64,000 bases of DNA. Origin: an uncultured delta proteobacterium (lineage in GTDB: Bacteria; Myxococcota_A; Polyangia; Polyangiales; Houyiibacteriaceae). The first letter of the stretch is position 1, and each line of letters opens with the position of its first letter. The position numbers are program-made. Positions 24,001 to 30,000 of the stretch are shown here, piece after piece. The stretch covers positions 704,001 to 768,000 of the forward strand of contig CAVOVB010000001.1 of assembly GCA_963699755.1 (NCBI GenBank), in the 5' to 3' direction.

Positions 24001-27000
24001 CCAAGTCTTCGCGTCGTCGACGACCAGCGAGGCCGCCCCACCGACAGCCGAAAGCTCGCCGAGGTGAGCCTGGCCCTCGCTGATCACGGCAGTCGCGGCG
24101 TCTTTCACGTAACCGACGGCGGAGAGTGCAGCTGGTTCGAGCTTGCTGCGTTGATCGCAGAAATCGTGAATCCGGAGTGCCGCGTCGAACCTTGTACGAG
24201 CGACGAGTTCCCACGCCCCGCGCCCCGTCCCGCCTACAGCGTCTTGGACATTTCGGCGACGGAACGGGTCGTCGGGCCGCTGATTCCATGGGAAGCTCGC
24301 GTCCGTGACGTGTTGGGCATCGTCGAGCCTTAGACTAGCCGCCGCTGCGATTCTTGTCTTCGCGCTCCTGATCGCGATCAGCGCATCGCCGACTCGTTCT
24401 CAGGCGCAGGCGATCTACTACCGTTCAATTCCGCTGGGCGATCGGGCGATGGGCCTAGGAGGCGCCTTCACCGGCATCGCGAGCGATCCTTCGGCCACGT
24501 ACTACAACCCAGCCGGCATCATGATCGGCGGACGCTTCCAACTCATGGGAAGCCTGACGTCGATTGTGTTTACCCGCAAAACGATCGACAACGGCTTGAA
24601 CTTCCAGAACGTGAGCGAAGACTTCAAGTCGACCGCTACGACGACGCTCCCCTCTTTCGTTGGAACCGTCGTGAAGTTCGGGCGCGAGCGCTTCGGAGAC
24701 CGCCAGTTCGCACTTGCGTACAGCACGTTCGAAGTCAGTCGCGAAGCCTTCGGAACGGGGGCCTCAGAGTTCCAGGAAGCTGGGACGCTCGACCTGCGTT
24801 TGGGTCGGGGCTTCAGGGATCGCTGGTACGGAGTCTCGTTCGCCGCGCAGGCGACCAAGAAGGTCGCCCTCGGCCTCACGGGCTTCCTCGCGCAACAGCA
24901 AGGCGACTACCGCGAGGACATCGGCTCCGCGACGGGAGGCACAATCGACGAGAACGGGCAGCGCGTAGATGGTGATTTTGCAACGACCAGCCTTTCGCTC
25001 TCAACACGGGCATACGACTTCGTGTTCAGGCTTGGCGCGCTCTATCGGATCAACCCCCGCTGGCAAGTTGGCTTCGTGTTCCAACCGCCAGGCGTTCCGC
25101 TGAGCCAGAAGGGCAGCGTCTTTCGACGCACGAATTCGGCTTCGATCGATGGCCAGACTACTTATTCGCTCATCGACCAGGGCGACCTCTCGACGAGGGT
25201 GCCGATCCCCTTCGAGCTCCGCGCCGGCTTTGAGTTCAAGGCCAATACCTTGACGACTCTGTCGGCGGACGCCGCGGTGAGCGGCCCGGTTCGTGATCGC
25301 GACATATTCGGCCTCCCCGCGGCTCAGCTCGAGGTTCTTCCCGAAGACCTCGGGGTGTACTTCGCCAACTCGACCGAGCGGCGCTGGACTCCCAACGTTG
25401 CGATTGGTGTGGAGCACATGTTCGGCAAAGCTGTGGTGGCAGGAGGCCTGTTCACCAATGTCTCCGCCGCCCCCAACGTCCCCGAGACAGCGAATGAATA
25501 CAGCCCTGACCAAGTGTCGATGTTCGGCGCGTCGGTGTCGATCGGAATCGACACGAAAGGCTACCGCCTCGGTCTTGGGGCGACTGGATTCTTCGGCAGG
25601 GGTGACGCGCTCTCGTTCACTATCGACCGTGACACGCAGGTCGTCGGCTATCGACGCACGAAGGCGACCACCTCGGCCCTGATCCTCTACATCTCCGGCG
25701 CCGTCTCCGTCGCATCCAAGGGCGCAAAGAACGTCCAAGAGAAGATCAAGGAGAAGCAACAGAAGAAGAAAGAGAACGGCGACACCGACGAGAACGAGAA
25801 CGGGTCCGAGGACGCAACGCCTCCCCCTGACGCAAACCAGAGCCCGCCCTCAGTCGAGTAGGTAGACCTTCGTCGGGGGAAGGCCGATCCCCGGCCCAAT
25901 CGCGCTCGACCCCACTTCGACGAAGCCGCTCTCATCCGCCGCAAACTCCAAAACCGCGTTCTCGGCCGCATCCGGCACGTAGAGCATCTCGCTTTGCGGA
26001 TCGTAGGCGGGTTCCCCGATCACGAACGAGCTCATGGATTCGTACACGAGCGTTTGCGCCCCAGTCTCGAGATCGATCAAGTACAAACCGTCCGTGGTCG
26101 TCGCGAAGTCGCCGCTTACCACCCCAAGCGCTCGCTGCGCGTCGATCGCGATTACACCGTTCACCGCAATCGCCGACGCGGGGTCGTCGGCTACCCGCCA
26201 AACCTCTTCAATTGCCACCCCGCCCTGGCCTACGTCGAGCAGCGCAATGCCTGAGGACGCCCGAACCTGCGGCTCGTCTCCAAAGGGCTGCGCGAAACCG
26301 ACGCATGCCACGACGAGCTTGCTTGGCTCCCCGGGCACAGGAACGGTGCGCCCGCAGCTCTTGAGCCCGGGCAGCTCCAGCCCCTCAACCGACTCGTCTT
26401 CGAGGTCGACGACTGCCACCATTCCCGGTCCGGCTGCGTCGAAATTGGCACTGATGCGATCGAGCCCGACGACGATGGTCGAGCCAACGAGCACGCCGCG
26501 GCTCGGTCGCGCGAAGACGTCCACCGTGAGCGCTCCGTCTCCAGTTCCTGCTCGGGCGGTCGTGTCGAGCGAAGAGAGGTCGATTCGGGCGCCCGTTGCG
26601 CTCATGTCAGAAGGATTGACCTCGAACAGGTCGTTCCCTTGGTTTTCGGGCACGGCGGCCGGATTCAAGTTCGACTCGTAACGGGGAACCCAGGCGCTGT
26701 CCGAGTGGACGAAAATGAAATCCTGTGGGTTCGAAGAGAAGCCCGAGTCTCCGATGTCGCCTTGGGTCCGCAGCTGTCCATTGAGATTCCCAGTCGGCAC
26801 GAAGAAACGAGTCACCACATCGGTGAAGAATCGATCGATCACGGCAAGCGTTCCGTCGCCGGCTTGGCGAGTGGGCAAGACCACGTCGCCCGACAGGGTG
26901 GCGACCAGACCAGGATACCTCGTCCCGGAGCTGAGCCAGCTCTCGTCGATGGCGACGAAATCGGCGTCGAGCATCGCGATGGACGAGCTGCTGAAGTCCG

Positions 27001-30000
27001 AGCTGAGCACCGCATAGCGCGGCGTCGACGAGAGCGGATCGAGCGCAGGGCTGCCAGGTGCGTCGCCGCCACGGCTCCGTGGATCTCCATCCCCGCAGCC
27101 GACGGCGACGAGCAAGAGACAAGTCAGCAGAGTGAATTTGAGATCCCGTTCCATTTGCTTCCTCTCGCGTCGGGATAGGAAGGACAGGAACGAGGCACGT
27201 TCAATCGTGAAACGAAAACCATGGCCACCCGCCCTCCCCGAGGCGTTTCGAGTGAGCTCACGAGGGTAGGTCTCCGGGCTGGTAACCCTAGGTTCTGCCG
27301 CCTTCCCAGGTTTTCACCCAGTGGCATCGTGGCAGCGCATTCAGTTACATACCGTGGCGGGTCCGCGTCGGCCTCTCACCGACTTCCCTCTTCAACCGAT
27401 CGGATTTCTCTCCATCGGCCTATCTCCAACGGCTTCGAGGAAGCCGCCTTCGACCTTCGTAAGGACGTCAACGCTAGTTTGGCGTCGAGGAAAGTCAACC
27501 TACCAGGCGTGCCGATAGCTGGCCCTTCCACTGTAGCGGCGCCCGGGAAGTGGGTAGCCCACCAGATCTTGGCCGCGAACGTCGAGCAGATCGTCGGCTC
27601 GGAACCCCAAGCCCAGGCGCCCCTCGAAAAGGAGCGCCCCGACCCCGGCGGCGAGCGCCGTGCGCGCGGAAATCTCGACGAGGTTGGCCGGGTCCTCATA
27701 GGCCTTGCCCAGATAGGCAAGCTGGAAGAACCCGAAGATGTCGGAGACCCGCTTCGACAGGGTCCCCGAGTGGACCTCCGGCTGAACATAAGCGACCCAT
27801 TCCGGCTGCACTGGCAGTTGATTGCCATTCGCTTTGTCGATCGCTTGCGTCCAGGTGACCTCGCCTTGGAGAACGAAATATTGCGTGACTCCACCGCGAA
27901 GCTCGACCTCGACGCCTCGATTACGGGCGCCGCCGATATTCTCCGCCTTGAAGGTCGAAGCCGAAGTTCTGCGAAACCGGATCGCATCGTCGAGATGGGT
28001 CAAGAACGCGCCGAGCGACGCATAGCCGCTCACCGCTTCGCGATGACCACGAAGCGTCACTGCTCCGTCGTAGGCAAGCGAGCGCTCTTGCACCAAGTCG
28101 GGGTTTCCCTCGACGTTCGTGCGGTTGCCGAAGAGCTGGAGCAACGAAGGCAACTTGAATCCGCTGCTGACTGATCCGCGAAAGGCAAGCCACTCCAAGG
28201 GCGAGATCGCCGCAGCAACCCGATAGGTCGGAAGAAGATCGGACGACTCTCCTGGCGGCTCACCAACCAACGGAGCTTCTCGAATCGCGACGCGGGTCCA
28301 AGCCAGTCGAACGCTCGACCGCAGCTCCAAACCAACTTTCCCGACGTCACCGAAGAAACGGGTTTCCAAAGTCCCCGCGGCGGTGAGGCGATCGGAAGCC
28401 GGTTCGGGAAGCGCGGAAAGCTCGTTCTTGGGATCGTATGCTTGATAGCGTGCGGTGCCAATCGTCGTGATCTCGAACCAGGGCAAGGCCATCACCGATG
28501 CAGCCACGCGTCCGAAGGCCGTATGGGTCTGGTCATCTGTGCGTCGAGGACCGCCTCTGCCTAACTCACCGAGCCTGTCGTCGAGCTGGTTTCTTCCGTA
28601 ATCGTAGTTCGCCAACACTTGGAGCCTGTACGGATGCGCCCCGTCCTGCTGTTGAAGCCATGAGGCGGAGCCGATCAGCCGGGTCGTCTGTGTGCGCGCC
28701 CGGAGCGCGGGAGTCGCACCCAGCCCCGGCTCTCCGCGCTCGCGGCCGAGGCCGAGGAGGACCAGGTCGAGCTGGCTCGATTCGCTGGTCTTGGTGCGCA
28801 TGTTTGCGAAACCGAACCCTTCGACGAAGTCGGCGTTCTGCCGGCGGCGCTCCACGTCGTCTGTGGGATCGAACAGTGTTGCGTTGTCGTCGAGGTAGGG
28901 ATAGTCGTTCCGCGCTCCTGCCCCGCCAACGGTGCCAAAGAACGAAACCTTCTTCGAGGAGGCTGCGCCAAAAACGTTCGCACGCCAAGACCCGAAGCTG
29001 CCCCCGGTCAGACGCGTCCCCACTTCGGTCTCCTCGTAGTTTCGGGGCCGAAGACGCAATACGCCGCCGATCGCACCTTCGTTCAGCCAGGCGGGCGTGC
29101 CGCCCCGAAACACCTCGAAGCCTTCGATGGCTTCCAAGGGCACCAGACTCAGGTCAAACGAGCCCGCATCGGGGCTGCTGATCGGCACGTCGCCCAACAT
29201 CACCGCAACCTGGTCGCAGGCCACGCCGCGAAGCCGAAGGCAAAACGGCGAGCCCGCCGCTCCCTCGGACACGACGCGCGTACCGGCCGATTCGAGCAGA
29301 AGCTGATCGGTCGTTTGGGCAATGATCCGGTCGCGGACAAGGACCTCGCTTCCCGCCGCGGTCGCGTCGAGCGAGTTCGTCGCGGGGATCGGTCGGGCCA
29401 CCTTGGCGGTTTCACCGAACTGAGCGGAAGCAGGAGCAGTGATCGCAACGACTGAGATGAGCGCGGAGACTGCAAGACCGACGGGACTCCTTCTCCCCCG
29501 CGCTCGCTCGATCCGCCATTTCCCGACCTCGTCCAAATCCCGTTCCTAGATCGGGAACGGCCGATCGAACGGAACAGAAATTCCGACGCGCGACTCTCAC
29601 CATCCCCGAGGTGATCAGCACAAAGAACACGATCGCAGGTTTCCGGGCTCGCGACCCCAGGTCCTGTCACCTTCCCAGGCTCATCACCCAGTGGCATCAC
29701 GACAGAACATTCAGTCACATACCGTGGCGGGTCCGCGCCGGCCTCTCACCGACTTCCCTGCTTGAACCGACGATGACCGATCCGGCTTTGAGCGTCAATC
29801 GTCCTCAACGCGTATCGATCGGTCTCGGACCGCGTGGTAAGGACGCGCAGTGCGGCTCTATCCCCTGTTGTTTCTGCTCTTGCTCATCGCTGCGGCCCTC
29901 GCCGTGCTGGTCGGCTCGGGCGATCTCACCGATCCGGAGCTCCGCGACACGTTTCTGAAGCTCCGCGGCTATCGCCTCGCGGCAGCGTTTCTTGCCGGGG

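Follow-up and report, generated by a model that had tools for sequence, protein, structure and literature searches.

What is the role of a lipoprotein of 434 residues that is encoded under a cobalamin riboswitch of its own, beside genes for a BtuB-like transporter and a BtuCDF-like importer, and that has no match among Pfam and NCBIfam models at E <= 0.01? The genome-wide survey's note on this uncultured delta proteobacterium had proposed that it is the myxobacterial counterpart of BtuG, and our analysis supports this proposal by profile homology, gene context, a predicted complex and the need for vitamin B12. With a probability of roughly 0.7, we regard the protein as an outer-membrane lipoprotein that is both a remote homologue and the functional counterpart of Bacteroides BtuG, and for which we infer B12 binding and surface exposure. 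As BtuG we refer to BtuG1, BtuG2 and BtuG3 of Bacteroides thetaiotaomicron, the proteins of Pfam PF16819 (DUF5074) with PDB entries 3dsm, 8bmx, 8blw, 8p97 and 8ptf.

Layout of the locus and its riboswitches

The lipoprotein gene (P0001; 25850..27154, minus strand) is an open reading frame with an ATG start, and its translation gives a BtuG-like, seven-bladed beta-propeller lipoprotein. Read directly, the N-terminal sequence MERDLKFTLLTCLLLVAVG followed by C20 (ending LLVAVG before C20) reads as a lipoprotein signal, in which signal peptide and lipobox occupy residues 1-20 (27095..27154, minus strand); at least 90% of the 66 family members share Cys20. Further upstream, likewise on the minus strand, lie in turn a leader of 93 nt between the first aptamer and the ATG (27155..27247), this aptamer itself, which is dedicated to the lipoprotein gene (27248..27442; RF00174, 93.2 bits, E 7.1e-22, model positions 1-189 of 189), the gene for the BtuB-like TonB-dependent transporter (P0002, 678 aa; 27500..29536) with its Pfam domains Plug and TonB_dep_Rec_b-barrel, and a second cobalamin aptamer upstream of btuB (29618..29796; RF00174, 76.2 bits, E 5.2e-17). 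Both aptamers are full length, the Rfam gathering score being 31.5; they are the sole Rfam matches in the whole window, that is, the stretch of 64,000 nucleotides that was analysed, and the only cobalamin riboswitches in the 5.35-Mb genome. On the plus strand there follow a BtuC/FecCD-type ABC permease (29850..30824; PF01032, E 9.9e-70), a BtuD-type ABC ATPase (30817..31608; PF00005, E 1.6e-34) and a BtuF-type periplasmic binding protein (31559..32533; PF01497, E 4.1e-20). The permease is matched by BtuC models of NCBIfam with scores below their cut-offs, and the binding protein weakly by the BtuF model NF002894.

The layout given in the survey's note, namely a lipoprotein gene with its own riboswitch beside a riboswitch-btuB unit and btuCDF, was found again in all its parts, and the figures it gave for the riboswitches, the structure model and the fold searches agree with the re-computed ones within rounding. 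The source genome has an estimated contamination of 9%; nevertheless synteny at the locus holds across the genus, and its double-riboswitch layout recurs in seven of eight same-genus loci.

Immediately 5' of the lipoprotein ATG there is a purine-rich, Shine-Dalgarno-like GAGAGGAAG. A search of the 93-nt leader for a terminator-like site found none, and the leader does not fold more stably than shuffled sequences (z -0.29). That both riboswitches act in the OFF direction, and by which mode they exert control, is what we infer for this locus.

Fold and conserved residues of the lipoprotein

Both fold searches, repeated with a fresh AlphaFold2 model (66-row alignment, pLDDT 93.5, pTM 0.90), are again headed by BtuG chains, as had been reported before. 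In Foldseek the chains of BtuG1/2/3 take ranks 1-13 with E-values from 1.5e-10 to 3.3e-9, and in VIA-align over 48,161 chains the best are 8ptf (Z 29.1, rmsd 3.0, 312 aligned), 8blw (Z 28.9) and 8bn0 (Z 28.5), with a modest margin over the best unrelated propeller, the YVTN protein 1l0q at Z 26.1. The invariant residues of the family are mostly polar and lie in blades 1-4 (S76, D90, N142, R158 and D175); besides, C267 and C284 form an invariant Cys pair, which speaks for a location outside the cytoplasm.

Close behind in the VIA-align search come lactonase-type propellers (6nau, Z 25.8; 4qrj, Z 25.1), and a catalytic site could be built from the invariant residues Ser, Asp, Asn and Arg, both of which would suit an exported enzyme of lactonase or YVTN type that modifies or remodels corrinoids, or that has a B12-independent activity repressed by B12. 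We hold this to be very improbable, as no enzyme family of Pfam or NCBIfam matches the lipoprotein, the adjacency of btuB in 33 of 48 genomes indicates transport, and hhalign against the profile of lactonase lipoproteins gives a probability of 3.7% only.

Profile-level homology to BtuG

That beta-propellers resemble each other had been an objection to the fold evidence, and the profile-profile test answers it by separating BtuG from the other propeller lipoproteins. The family profile (66 rows) was aligned by hhalign with a BtuG profile of PF16819 (15 rows, headed by an orthologue of BtuG2 whose residues 1-366 match the same residues of 8bmx_D at E 9e-259), and a probability of 96.3% was obtained at E 1.7e-9 over 305 columns. 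The value stays at 96.1% (E 3.1e-9) when signal peptides are removed and at 96.3% when BtuG is cut to 7 rows, while four other propeller-lipoprotein families that served as controls range from about 4 to 13%, including, besides the lactonase lipoproteins, YVTN lipoproteins at 9.2% and XusB at 13.2%, all from shallow control alignments of 4 to 6 rows. Compared in this way, profile against profile, the lipoprotein is shown to be a very distant relative of Bacteroides BtuG. Its identity to BtuG is 12-16%; PF16819 does not match it at E <= 0.01, nor in the genome at E <= 10, and matches just one of the 66 family members (E 0.0078), in a row that also matches generic propeller families. Moreover in 401 Myxococcota genomes PF16819 gives weak partial matches only, none of them at the loci of the family.

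The likeness to BtuG extends from the N-terminal lipoprotein Cys, the seven blades and the best fold match to a common G-D motif, numbered G89-D90 in either protein, to Pro and Gly landmarks that align, to cobalamin riboswitch control and to a gene that adjoins btuB, here directly downstream of it. Unlike BtuG, the lipoprotein comes from Myxococcota rather than Bacteroidota, escapes the PF16819 model, is about 70 residues longer, has the invariant pair C267 and C284 and mostly other residues at the corrin contacts, and its gene has a second riboswitch of its own between btuB and itself; moreover B12 binding and surface exposure belong here to the proposed reading. We conclude that it is a new, divergent myxobacterial branch of the known BtuG device.

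Other known propellers stand further away. Those of YVTN/YncE type (1l0q, 3vgz; TIGR02276 repeat) have the seven-bladed architecture in common with the lipoprotein, and BtuG itself carries a "YncE family" annotation and matches 1l0q by sequence; they differ by the low hhalign value, obtained against YVTN lipoproteins of the same genus, and by fold (Z 26.1 and 23.2), and we know of no tie of 1l0q and 3vgz to B12. XusB (DUF4374, PF14298; PDB 9hqe, 9gbc), which in Bacteroides binds xenosiderophores and forms the propeller lid of XusA, is likewise a propeller lipoprotein on a compact TonB-dependent transporter, and one language-model neighbour cluster of our lipoprotein carries PF14298 (score 0.91). 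Its fold Z of 23.1 is clearly lower than that of BtuG, and its hhalign match covers the signal peptide alone; the riboswitches here indicate B12 rather than siderophores, and no PF14298 was found in 151 Myxococcota genomes at E <= 1e-15. BtuK1 of B. thetaiotaomicron (9s6c), a B12-binding propeller from a B12 uptake locus, was compared by fold only and with Z 23.2 scores under BtuG and several unrelated propellers.

Predicted complex with the BtuB-like transporter

The transporter has its best NCBIfam match in TIGR01779 (B12 receptor) with 87.6 bits, far under the cut-off of 599.7, and reaches 45.7 bits against NF007926, where the cut-off is 836, so that an equivalog-level match to either model is not attained. 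Its AlphaFold2 model is a barrel of 22 strands, and XusA stands first among the top Foldseek matches, which include PqqU, BtuB3 of B. thetaiotaomicron and E. coli BtuB. Because of these fold neighbours and the riboswitch, the transporter is assigned a probable specificity for B12.

The complex of lipoprotein and BtuB, which could not be run for the survey's note, has now been modelled. It yields ipSAE values of 0.72, 0.81 and 0.71 against 0.00 for the best of three controls, none of which is another propeller; among solved complexes 116 of 157 attain this mark, and among mismatched pairs two of 215 do. The runs share at least 86% of contacts, and the pLDDT of the partners is at least 86. All nine contact segments of BtuB lie in the long loops that lead from an odd to an even strand (EL2-5 and EL7-11), that is, on the extracellular side, while the plug and the short turns are free of contacts. 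The model may in part recall solved BtuBG complexes.

As modelled, the propeller probably caps the neighbouring B12 importer on its extracellular face, as BtuG does. On this reading, low intracellular adenosylcobalamin would release, through the two riboswitches, the expression of the BtuB-like transporter and, separately, of the lipoprotein; the propeller, tethered by the lipidated Cys20, would cover the extracellular loops of BtuB like a lid, its conserved face turned to the lumen of the barrel, and would capture the corrinoid and hand it to BtuB for TonB-driven import; and BtuFCD, encoded alongside, would carry it through the inner membrane.

To our knowledge it is not established that this lineage exposes lipoproteins on its surface, and we know of no export signal there. 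The protein might instead face the periplasm, from the inner leaflet of the outer membrane or from the inner membrane, and act as a corrinoid chaperone from BtuB to BtuF in the manner of AztD, a periplasmic propeller from which an ABC binding protein receives zinc. Riboswitch control and linkage to btuB and btuFCD would fit this equally well, and AztD is among the weaker Foldseek matches (6n01, E 2.6e-7); it is nevertheless unlikely, though the most plausible of the alternatives, since the complex model puts the propeller on the extracellular loops only, and its nearest relatives by both profile and fold are surface-exposed lids.

Corrin-contact residues

Fifteen residues of BtuG2 have been named in print as corrinoid contacts, among them E55, G56, Q93, N107, S131, W149, W194, S195, Q219 and W272. 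The comparison of these positions, missing so far, gives a divided answer. By the hhalign mapping ten of the fifteen are aligned and five are not, and of the ten a single one is identical (S131, here S141), while the three aligned Trp positions are occupied in the family by Y/F/H, F and F/L and so remain aromatic or hydrophobic; at the position of Q219, 46 of 66 members have N. Four of the ten aligned positions (D53, F109, F238 and F350) fall within the set of 59 BtuB-facing residues.

Since the BtuG2 contacts are mostly not kept, and the complex model backs binding to BtuB and is silent on the ligand, the lipoprotein could also be a structural partner or lid that binds no B12 and gates, stabilises or shields BtuB from phages or bacteriocins. 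We give this little credence, slightly less than to a chaperone in the periplasm: nine riboswitch-controlled loci without an adjacent transporter gene would be hard to explain, and the invariant polar residues lie in blades 1-4, the blades that are described in PMC10404256 as hydrogen-bonding B12 in BtuG2. A lid that itself binds B12 accordingly remains our preferred reading.

Probable need for vitamin B12 and distribution in Myxococcota

The survey's note had also held that the organism depends on external B12. This has been checked in part: CbiC and CbiB were not found in the genome, which is rated 100% complete, and six B12-binding domains stand above cut-off.

In the phylum the family falls into 706 clusters at 50% identity, and 105 of 401 sampled genomes carry it. 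By tblastn, a BtuB-like gene adjoins the family gene in the 33 of 48 other Myxococcota genomes already mentioned (on the same strand and immediately upstream of it in 32; in the remaining one, L022, immediately downstream) and is absent from this position in 15. Of 46 genomes, 26 have a cobalamin riboswitch in the flanking sequence that was fetched; altogether 42 of 48 have an adjacent transporter, a riboswitch or both, and two of the six genomes that lack such a B12 context have the gene at a contig end. The linkage of the family gene with btuB and riboswitch is thus conserved across the phylum Myxococcota.

In PMC6143338, BtuG is described as exclusive to Bacteroidetes. Moreover a survey of transporter lids (bioRxiv 10.1101/2023.03.17.533168) asks for the reason that ties lids to Bacteroidota, and guesses that other diderms cannot export such lipoproteins. 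From the present family one may tentatively picture, at somewhat less than even odds, lidded B12 transporters of BtuBG type as an old design spanning phyla, in which Myxococcota possess a deeply divergent BtuG clade of their own made up of surface lipoproteins, with the copies that lack a transporter acting as detached scavengers. If so, pedal-bin capture of B12 would reach a second phylum, mostly predators and degraders that live in soil and sea, and several hundred "hypothetical proteins" would gain a name and a testable function. Myxococcota would then be able to place lipoproteins on the cell surface, an export that becomes a directly testable question, and the riboswitch-controlled copies without an adjacent transporter may serve one encoded elsewhere. 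Among the nine loci of the latter kind, one adjoins BtuR (L026) and another methylmalonyl-CoA mutase (L040).

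The lipoprotein gene and its riboswitches

The lipoprotein gene at 25850-27154 on the minus strand, with an ATG start and 434 codons, probably (at roughly 0.7 by our estimate) encodes a counterpart of BtuG, the B12-binding surface lipoprotein of Bacteroides thetaiotaomicron, namely a lipid-anchored lid that would be induced by B12 limitation, cap BtuB, capture corrinoids and pass them on. Its N-terminus, MERDLKFTLLTCLLLVAVG-C20, is a signal peptide with the lipobox at its end, while neither Pfam nor NCBIfam gives a match to the protein at E<=0.01. A full-length cobalamin aptamer (27248-27442, minus strand; Rfam 93.2 bits, E 7.1e-22) ends 93 nt before the ATG, and a second full-length one (29618-29796, minus strand; 76.2 bits, E 5.2e-17) precedes the ORF at 27500-29536 on the minus strand, whose product combines a Plug with a TonB-dependent barrel domain; among NCBIfam models, the B12 receptor model TIGR01779 matches this product best, though far under the cut-off. 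Genes of FecCD/BtuC, ABC ATPase/BtuD and BtuF type at 29850-32533 are divergent from this btuB-like gene. The ORF with its lipobox and its own riboswitch at 93 nt, the second riboswitch-btuB unit and the btuCDF-like neighbours had all been described in the genome-wide survey's note, and all of them were found again. The two aptamers are the only Rfam matches in the 64-kb window. They are also the only cobalamin riboswitches detected in the whole 5.35-Mb assembly, and because of this the association between riboswitch and propeller gene cannot be chance.

In the mechanism that we propose, the lipoprotein would be made only under B12 limitation. The leader between the first aptamer and the ATG holds no terminator-like site, such sites being no commoner in the region than in shuffled sequences (3 vs. 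4.0), and its fold is no more stable than that of shuffles (z -0.29), so that a hairpin predicted across the Shine-Dalgarno-like stretch is not evidence. The 5' end of the btuB aptamer is only about 53 nt (29797-29849) away from the divergent btuC-like gene as annotated; thus the btuB promoter must overlap the btuC start region, or the btuC start lies further in.

As for the need of the cofactor, the same note had claimed a missing corrin pathway together with B12 use. In the assembly, for which completeness is put at 100% and contamination at 9%, no match was obtained for the two pathway markers examined, CbiC/CobH (PF02570) and CbiB/CobD (PF03186), and six B12-binding domains score above the Pfam cut-off; this fits an organism that is auxotrophic for B12 and uses it.

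Several other genes surround the locus. Convergent with the lipoprotein gene is a 518-aa outer-membrane-protein-like ORF (24305-25861, plus strand), whose matches to FadL/Toluene_X and PorV-family models are weak and all under the cut-offs, and which is found at the same place in three loci of the genus (L003, L006 and L007; 58-79% identity). Further on that side lie dTDP-rhamnose genes (21001-24333, plus strand), namely an rmlB-like gene (21001-22053), rmlA (22063-22944) and rmlD (23491-24333). Just past the btuF-like gene, a strong match to ThrH, the bifunctional phosphoserine phosphatase/homoserine phosphotransferase, is found at 32559-33233 on the minus strand (306.9 bits against a cut-off of 133), followed at 33284-36534 on the plus strand by a patatin-like phospholipase and then an MMPL/HpnN-like RND transporter, which matched hopanoid/sterol transporter models under their cut-offs.

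Relationship to BtuG

For the comparison at the level of families, natural BtuG sequences were taken from five Bacteroidales genomes searched with Pfam PF16819 (DUF5074), where one match is the orthologue of BtuG2 (8bmx_D, E 9e-259, residues 1-366 on 1-366) and another that of BtuG1 (8blw_B, E 1e-300); a deep search with BtuG2 moreover confirmed that the BtuG family carries PF16819, with 'YncE family' or 'DUF5074' as its labels. When our 66-row alignment of the propeller family (A1) was compared by hhalign with a 15-row BtuG alignment, the probability was 96.3% (E 1.7e-9), the 305 aligned columns extending from the lipobox as far as blade 7; it was 96.1% (E 3.1e-9) after removal of the signal peptides and the Cys, and again 96.3% (E 2e-9) with the seven genome-derived BtuG rows alone. 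The same alignment reached 3.7% with lactonase-type lipoprotein propellers (4 rows), 9.2% with same-genus YVTN-type lipoprotein propellers (5 rows) and 13.2% with Bacteroides XusB (6 rows), the last over 35 columns of signal peptide only, and XusB is rejected as the true family of the lipoprotein. BtuG itself gave 92% with XusB, 64% with YVTN and 46% with lactonase. Since A1 scores so differently with BtuG and with these controls, the profiles tie the family specifically to BtuG and not to propellers in general, as far as control alignments of 4-6 rows can be taken.

Other comparisons qualify this tie. Single BtuG sequences gave low hhalign probabilities against A1, with one exception at 74%. 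The PF16819 HMM does not match the window lipoprotein and matches one of the 66 family members (E 0.0078), a row that also matches PQQ_2 and WD40, while the weak partial PF16819 matches in 38 of 401 Myxococcota genomes are at loci other than those of the family. Against the sequences of solved structures, the single lipoprotein and the family profile found unrelated proteins at best (E 0.75 and 0.78). Among language-model neighbours, 14 of the 30 named-cluster matches fall in the set carrying PF16819, a loose agreement.

The predicted fold agrees with the profiles. AlphaFold2 on A1 gives a seven-bladed propeller (pLDDT 93.5, pTM 0.90), for which ranks 1-13 of Foldseek against the PDB are chains of BtuG1/2/3 (E 1.5e-10 to 3.3e-9) with unrelated propellers beginning at E 3.6e-9. 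VIA-align over 48,161 representatives likewise puts 8ptf (Z 29.1, rmsd 3.0, 312 aligned), 8blw (28.9) and 8bn0 (28.5) first, followed by 1l0q, a YVTN propeller from an archaeon (26.1), and then by lactonases (from 25.8 down to 24.6), while the Bacteroides propeller lipoproteins BtuK1 (23.2) and XusB (23.1) score lower than BtuG. The BtuG-first ranking noted earlier is therefore reproduced in both searches, and so is the caution attached to it, as the margin of the fold alone over unrelated propellers is modest. An exported enzyme, a reading for which the lactonases in this ranking might speak and to which the 3.7% of the lactonase profile lends little, seems to us very improbable.

In the BtuG discovery paper, the family is described as exclusive to Bacteroidetes, and BlastP found no homologues outside (PMC6143338); homologues of DUF4465/BtuJ do extend to Myxococcota. 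Among the papers listed in searches of freely available main texts, none describes a myxobacterial BtuG.

Conserved residues and the B12 contacts of BtuG2

Nine positions are invariant in A1 (S76, D90, N142, R158, D175, P217, C267, C284 and G286), and 22 more, Cys20 among them, are conserved in 90% or more of the rows. Because the Cys pair C267/C284 is invariant, the alignment suggests an oxidising, extracytoplasmic location. The invariant polar residues are located in the first four blades, and in BtuG2 the hydrogen bonds to B12 are described as coming from blades 1 to 4 (PMC10404256).

The comparison of corrin contacts, which had been left undone, was also carried out. Fifteen contacts of BtuG2 are listed in the published accounts (Glu55, Gly56, Phe58, Gln93, Asn107, Ser131, Ile148, Trp149, Trp194, Ser195, Gln219, Trp272, Tyr316, Tyr335 and Ile359; bioRxiv 10.1101/2024.02.16.580637, PMC10404256, PMC13616437), and all of them are found at the stated numbers in the orthologue used. 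Five are in stretches unaligned with the lipoprotein; the others correspond to S52 for E55 (S/T in the family column), D53 for G56 (D in 64/66), T95 for Q93 (T/S), F109 for N107 (F/L/Y), S141 for S131 (S/A), Y159 for W149 (Y/F/H), F238 for W194 (F in 55/66), A241 for S195 (A in 36/66), S266 for Q219 (N in 46/66) and F350 for W272 (F/L). The aromatic or polar character is thus often kept, but identity is found at one aligned position only. A structural partner of the transporter that does not itself bind B12 could show such low identity; we regard it as quite unlikely. Even BtuG1 has no more than some 60% of its contacts in common with BtuG2 (bioRxiv 10.1101/2024.02.16.580637), so that the comparison speaks clearly neither for nor against a BtuG-like lid.

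Predicted complex with the BtuB-like protein

A complex model with BtuB, which the earlier note lacked, was obtained by co-folding residues 70-678 of the BtuB-like protein (23-row alignment) with residues 44-434 of the propeller (A1). The ipSAE values are 0.72, 0.81 and 0.71, while three controls all gave 0.00; in the calibration of the tool, 116 of 157 solved complexes attain the ipSAE mark, as do 2 of 215 mismatched pairs. The runs have at least 86% of contacts in common, with a partner pLDDT of at least 86. The tool rates this as support for binding between propeller and BtuB, short of proof, with a possible memory of the solved BtuBG complexes in the model.

The BtuB-like protein is itself modelled with 22 barrel strands (pLDDT 84.0). 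Its nine contact segments (215-226, 272-279, 321-330, 373-377, 473-476, 522-532, 570-572, 614-623 and 659-662) are all within long odd-to-even strand loops, which in the model are extracellular loops 2-5 and 7-11, since the C-terminal strand of TonB-dependent transporters ends in the periplasm; the plug and the short periplasmic turns have no propeller contacts. A chaperone facing the periplasm is unlikely beside such a model. For a BtuG-like lid, on the other side, the lipid-anchored propeller would cap BtuB, and the corrinoids that it captures would be handed over to BtuB.

The 59 contact residues of the propeller include D53, S76, G77, D107, D112, Q127, F109, F238 and F350, and hence in the model its conserved face, with four of the ten equivalents of BtuG2 contacts, is directed into the transporter. 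This matches the closed BtuBG structures as described in PMC10404256. Of the 29 conserved positions, 7 are among the 59 residues (of 391) that form the predicted interface, vs. about 4.4 expected, an excess too weak for use. Foldseek with the BtuB-like model does not tell transporters that have a lid apart from those that have none.

Distribution and genomic context in Myxococcota

When 1.84 billion cluster representatives were searched exhaustively with phmmer, the family came to 706 clusters at E<=0.001 and to 185 with the threshold at E<=1e-30, and a word-indexed search gave 295 proteins, of which the best 120 are 68-100% identical and all 'hypothetical protein', their named sources being Myxococcales, Polyangiales or 'Deltaproteobacteria' MAGs. 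With a profile built from 16 of the more distant members, 38 proteins were found, and none outside Myxococcota among the four with an organism label (Deltaproteobacteria bacterium, Sandaracinaceae and Polyangiaceae, which all fit the phylum). Within the phylum, the family is present in 105 of 401 sampled genomes, in 93 of the 339 of high quality and in 63 of 254 genera, and it has no member in one large taxonomic family (0/34 genomes).

The context was compared in 49 loci, which come from 48 further genomes of the phylum. Here tblastn with the window's BtuB-like protein found a homologue adjoining the propeller gene in 33 of the 48 genomes; in 32 it lies directly upstream and on the same strand, and in L022 it lies downstream; at L028 there is only a 73-residue C-terminal fragment at the locus edge. 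In three sets of 20, cobalamin riboswitches at the Rfam gathering threshold were detected in 7 (diverse loci), 11 (closer loci, with flanks of 1.5 kb) and 15 (further regions); counted by genome, 26 of 46 have one near the propeller gene. Nine loci have the riboswitch without an adjacent transporter gene (L012, L015, L016, L019, L026, L028, L040, L046 and L047), for example L026, where the neighbour is a BtuR-type adenosyltransferase, and L040, where it is a methylmalonyl-CoA mutase. Altogether 42 of the 48 genomes have at least one of the two features, BtuB-like neighbour or riboswitch, and six have neither, two at contig ends (L005, L048) and four with unrelated neighbours (L038, L039, L044, L050). 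The window's layout riboswitch-btuB-riboswitch-propeller is seen again in 7 of the 8 regions from the same genus.

Three same-genus genomes (G170, G017 and G035; loci L012, L015 and L016) have as their sole propeller a copy 41-43% identical, which is directly preceded by a cobalamin riboswitch of its own and has no BtuB-like gene alongside; these copies form a second subtype in the genus, one that stands alone. Moreover, an unannotated ORF lies between riboswitch and propeller gene at L019:2697-3620 (minus strand), L028:740-1429 (plus strand) and L046:1117-2652 (plus strand), with 307, 229 and 511 aa respectively; two have no Pfam match and one a weak DUF4215 match, and they may be further lipoproteins of B12 loci. 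At L038:861-956 (plus strand), a selenocysteine tRNA (RF01852, 71.3 bits) is found upstream of a family member without B12 context. Finally, short contigs with a match to a Bacteroides-type 16S stretch occur in assemblies under the labels Pyxidicoccus, Spirochaetia, Christensenellaceae, Serratia and Saccharibacteria (L060, L073, L078, L118 and L128); these contigs are probably contaminants.
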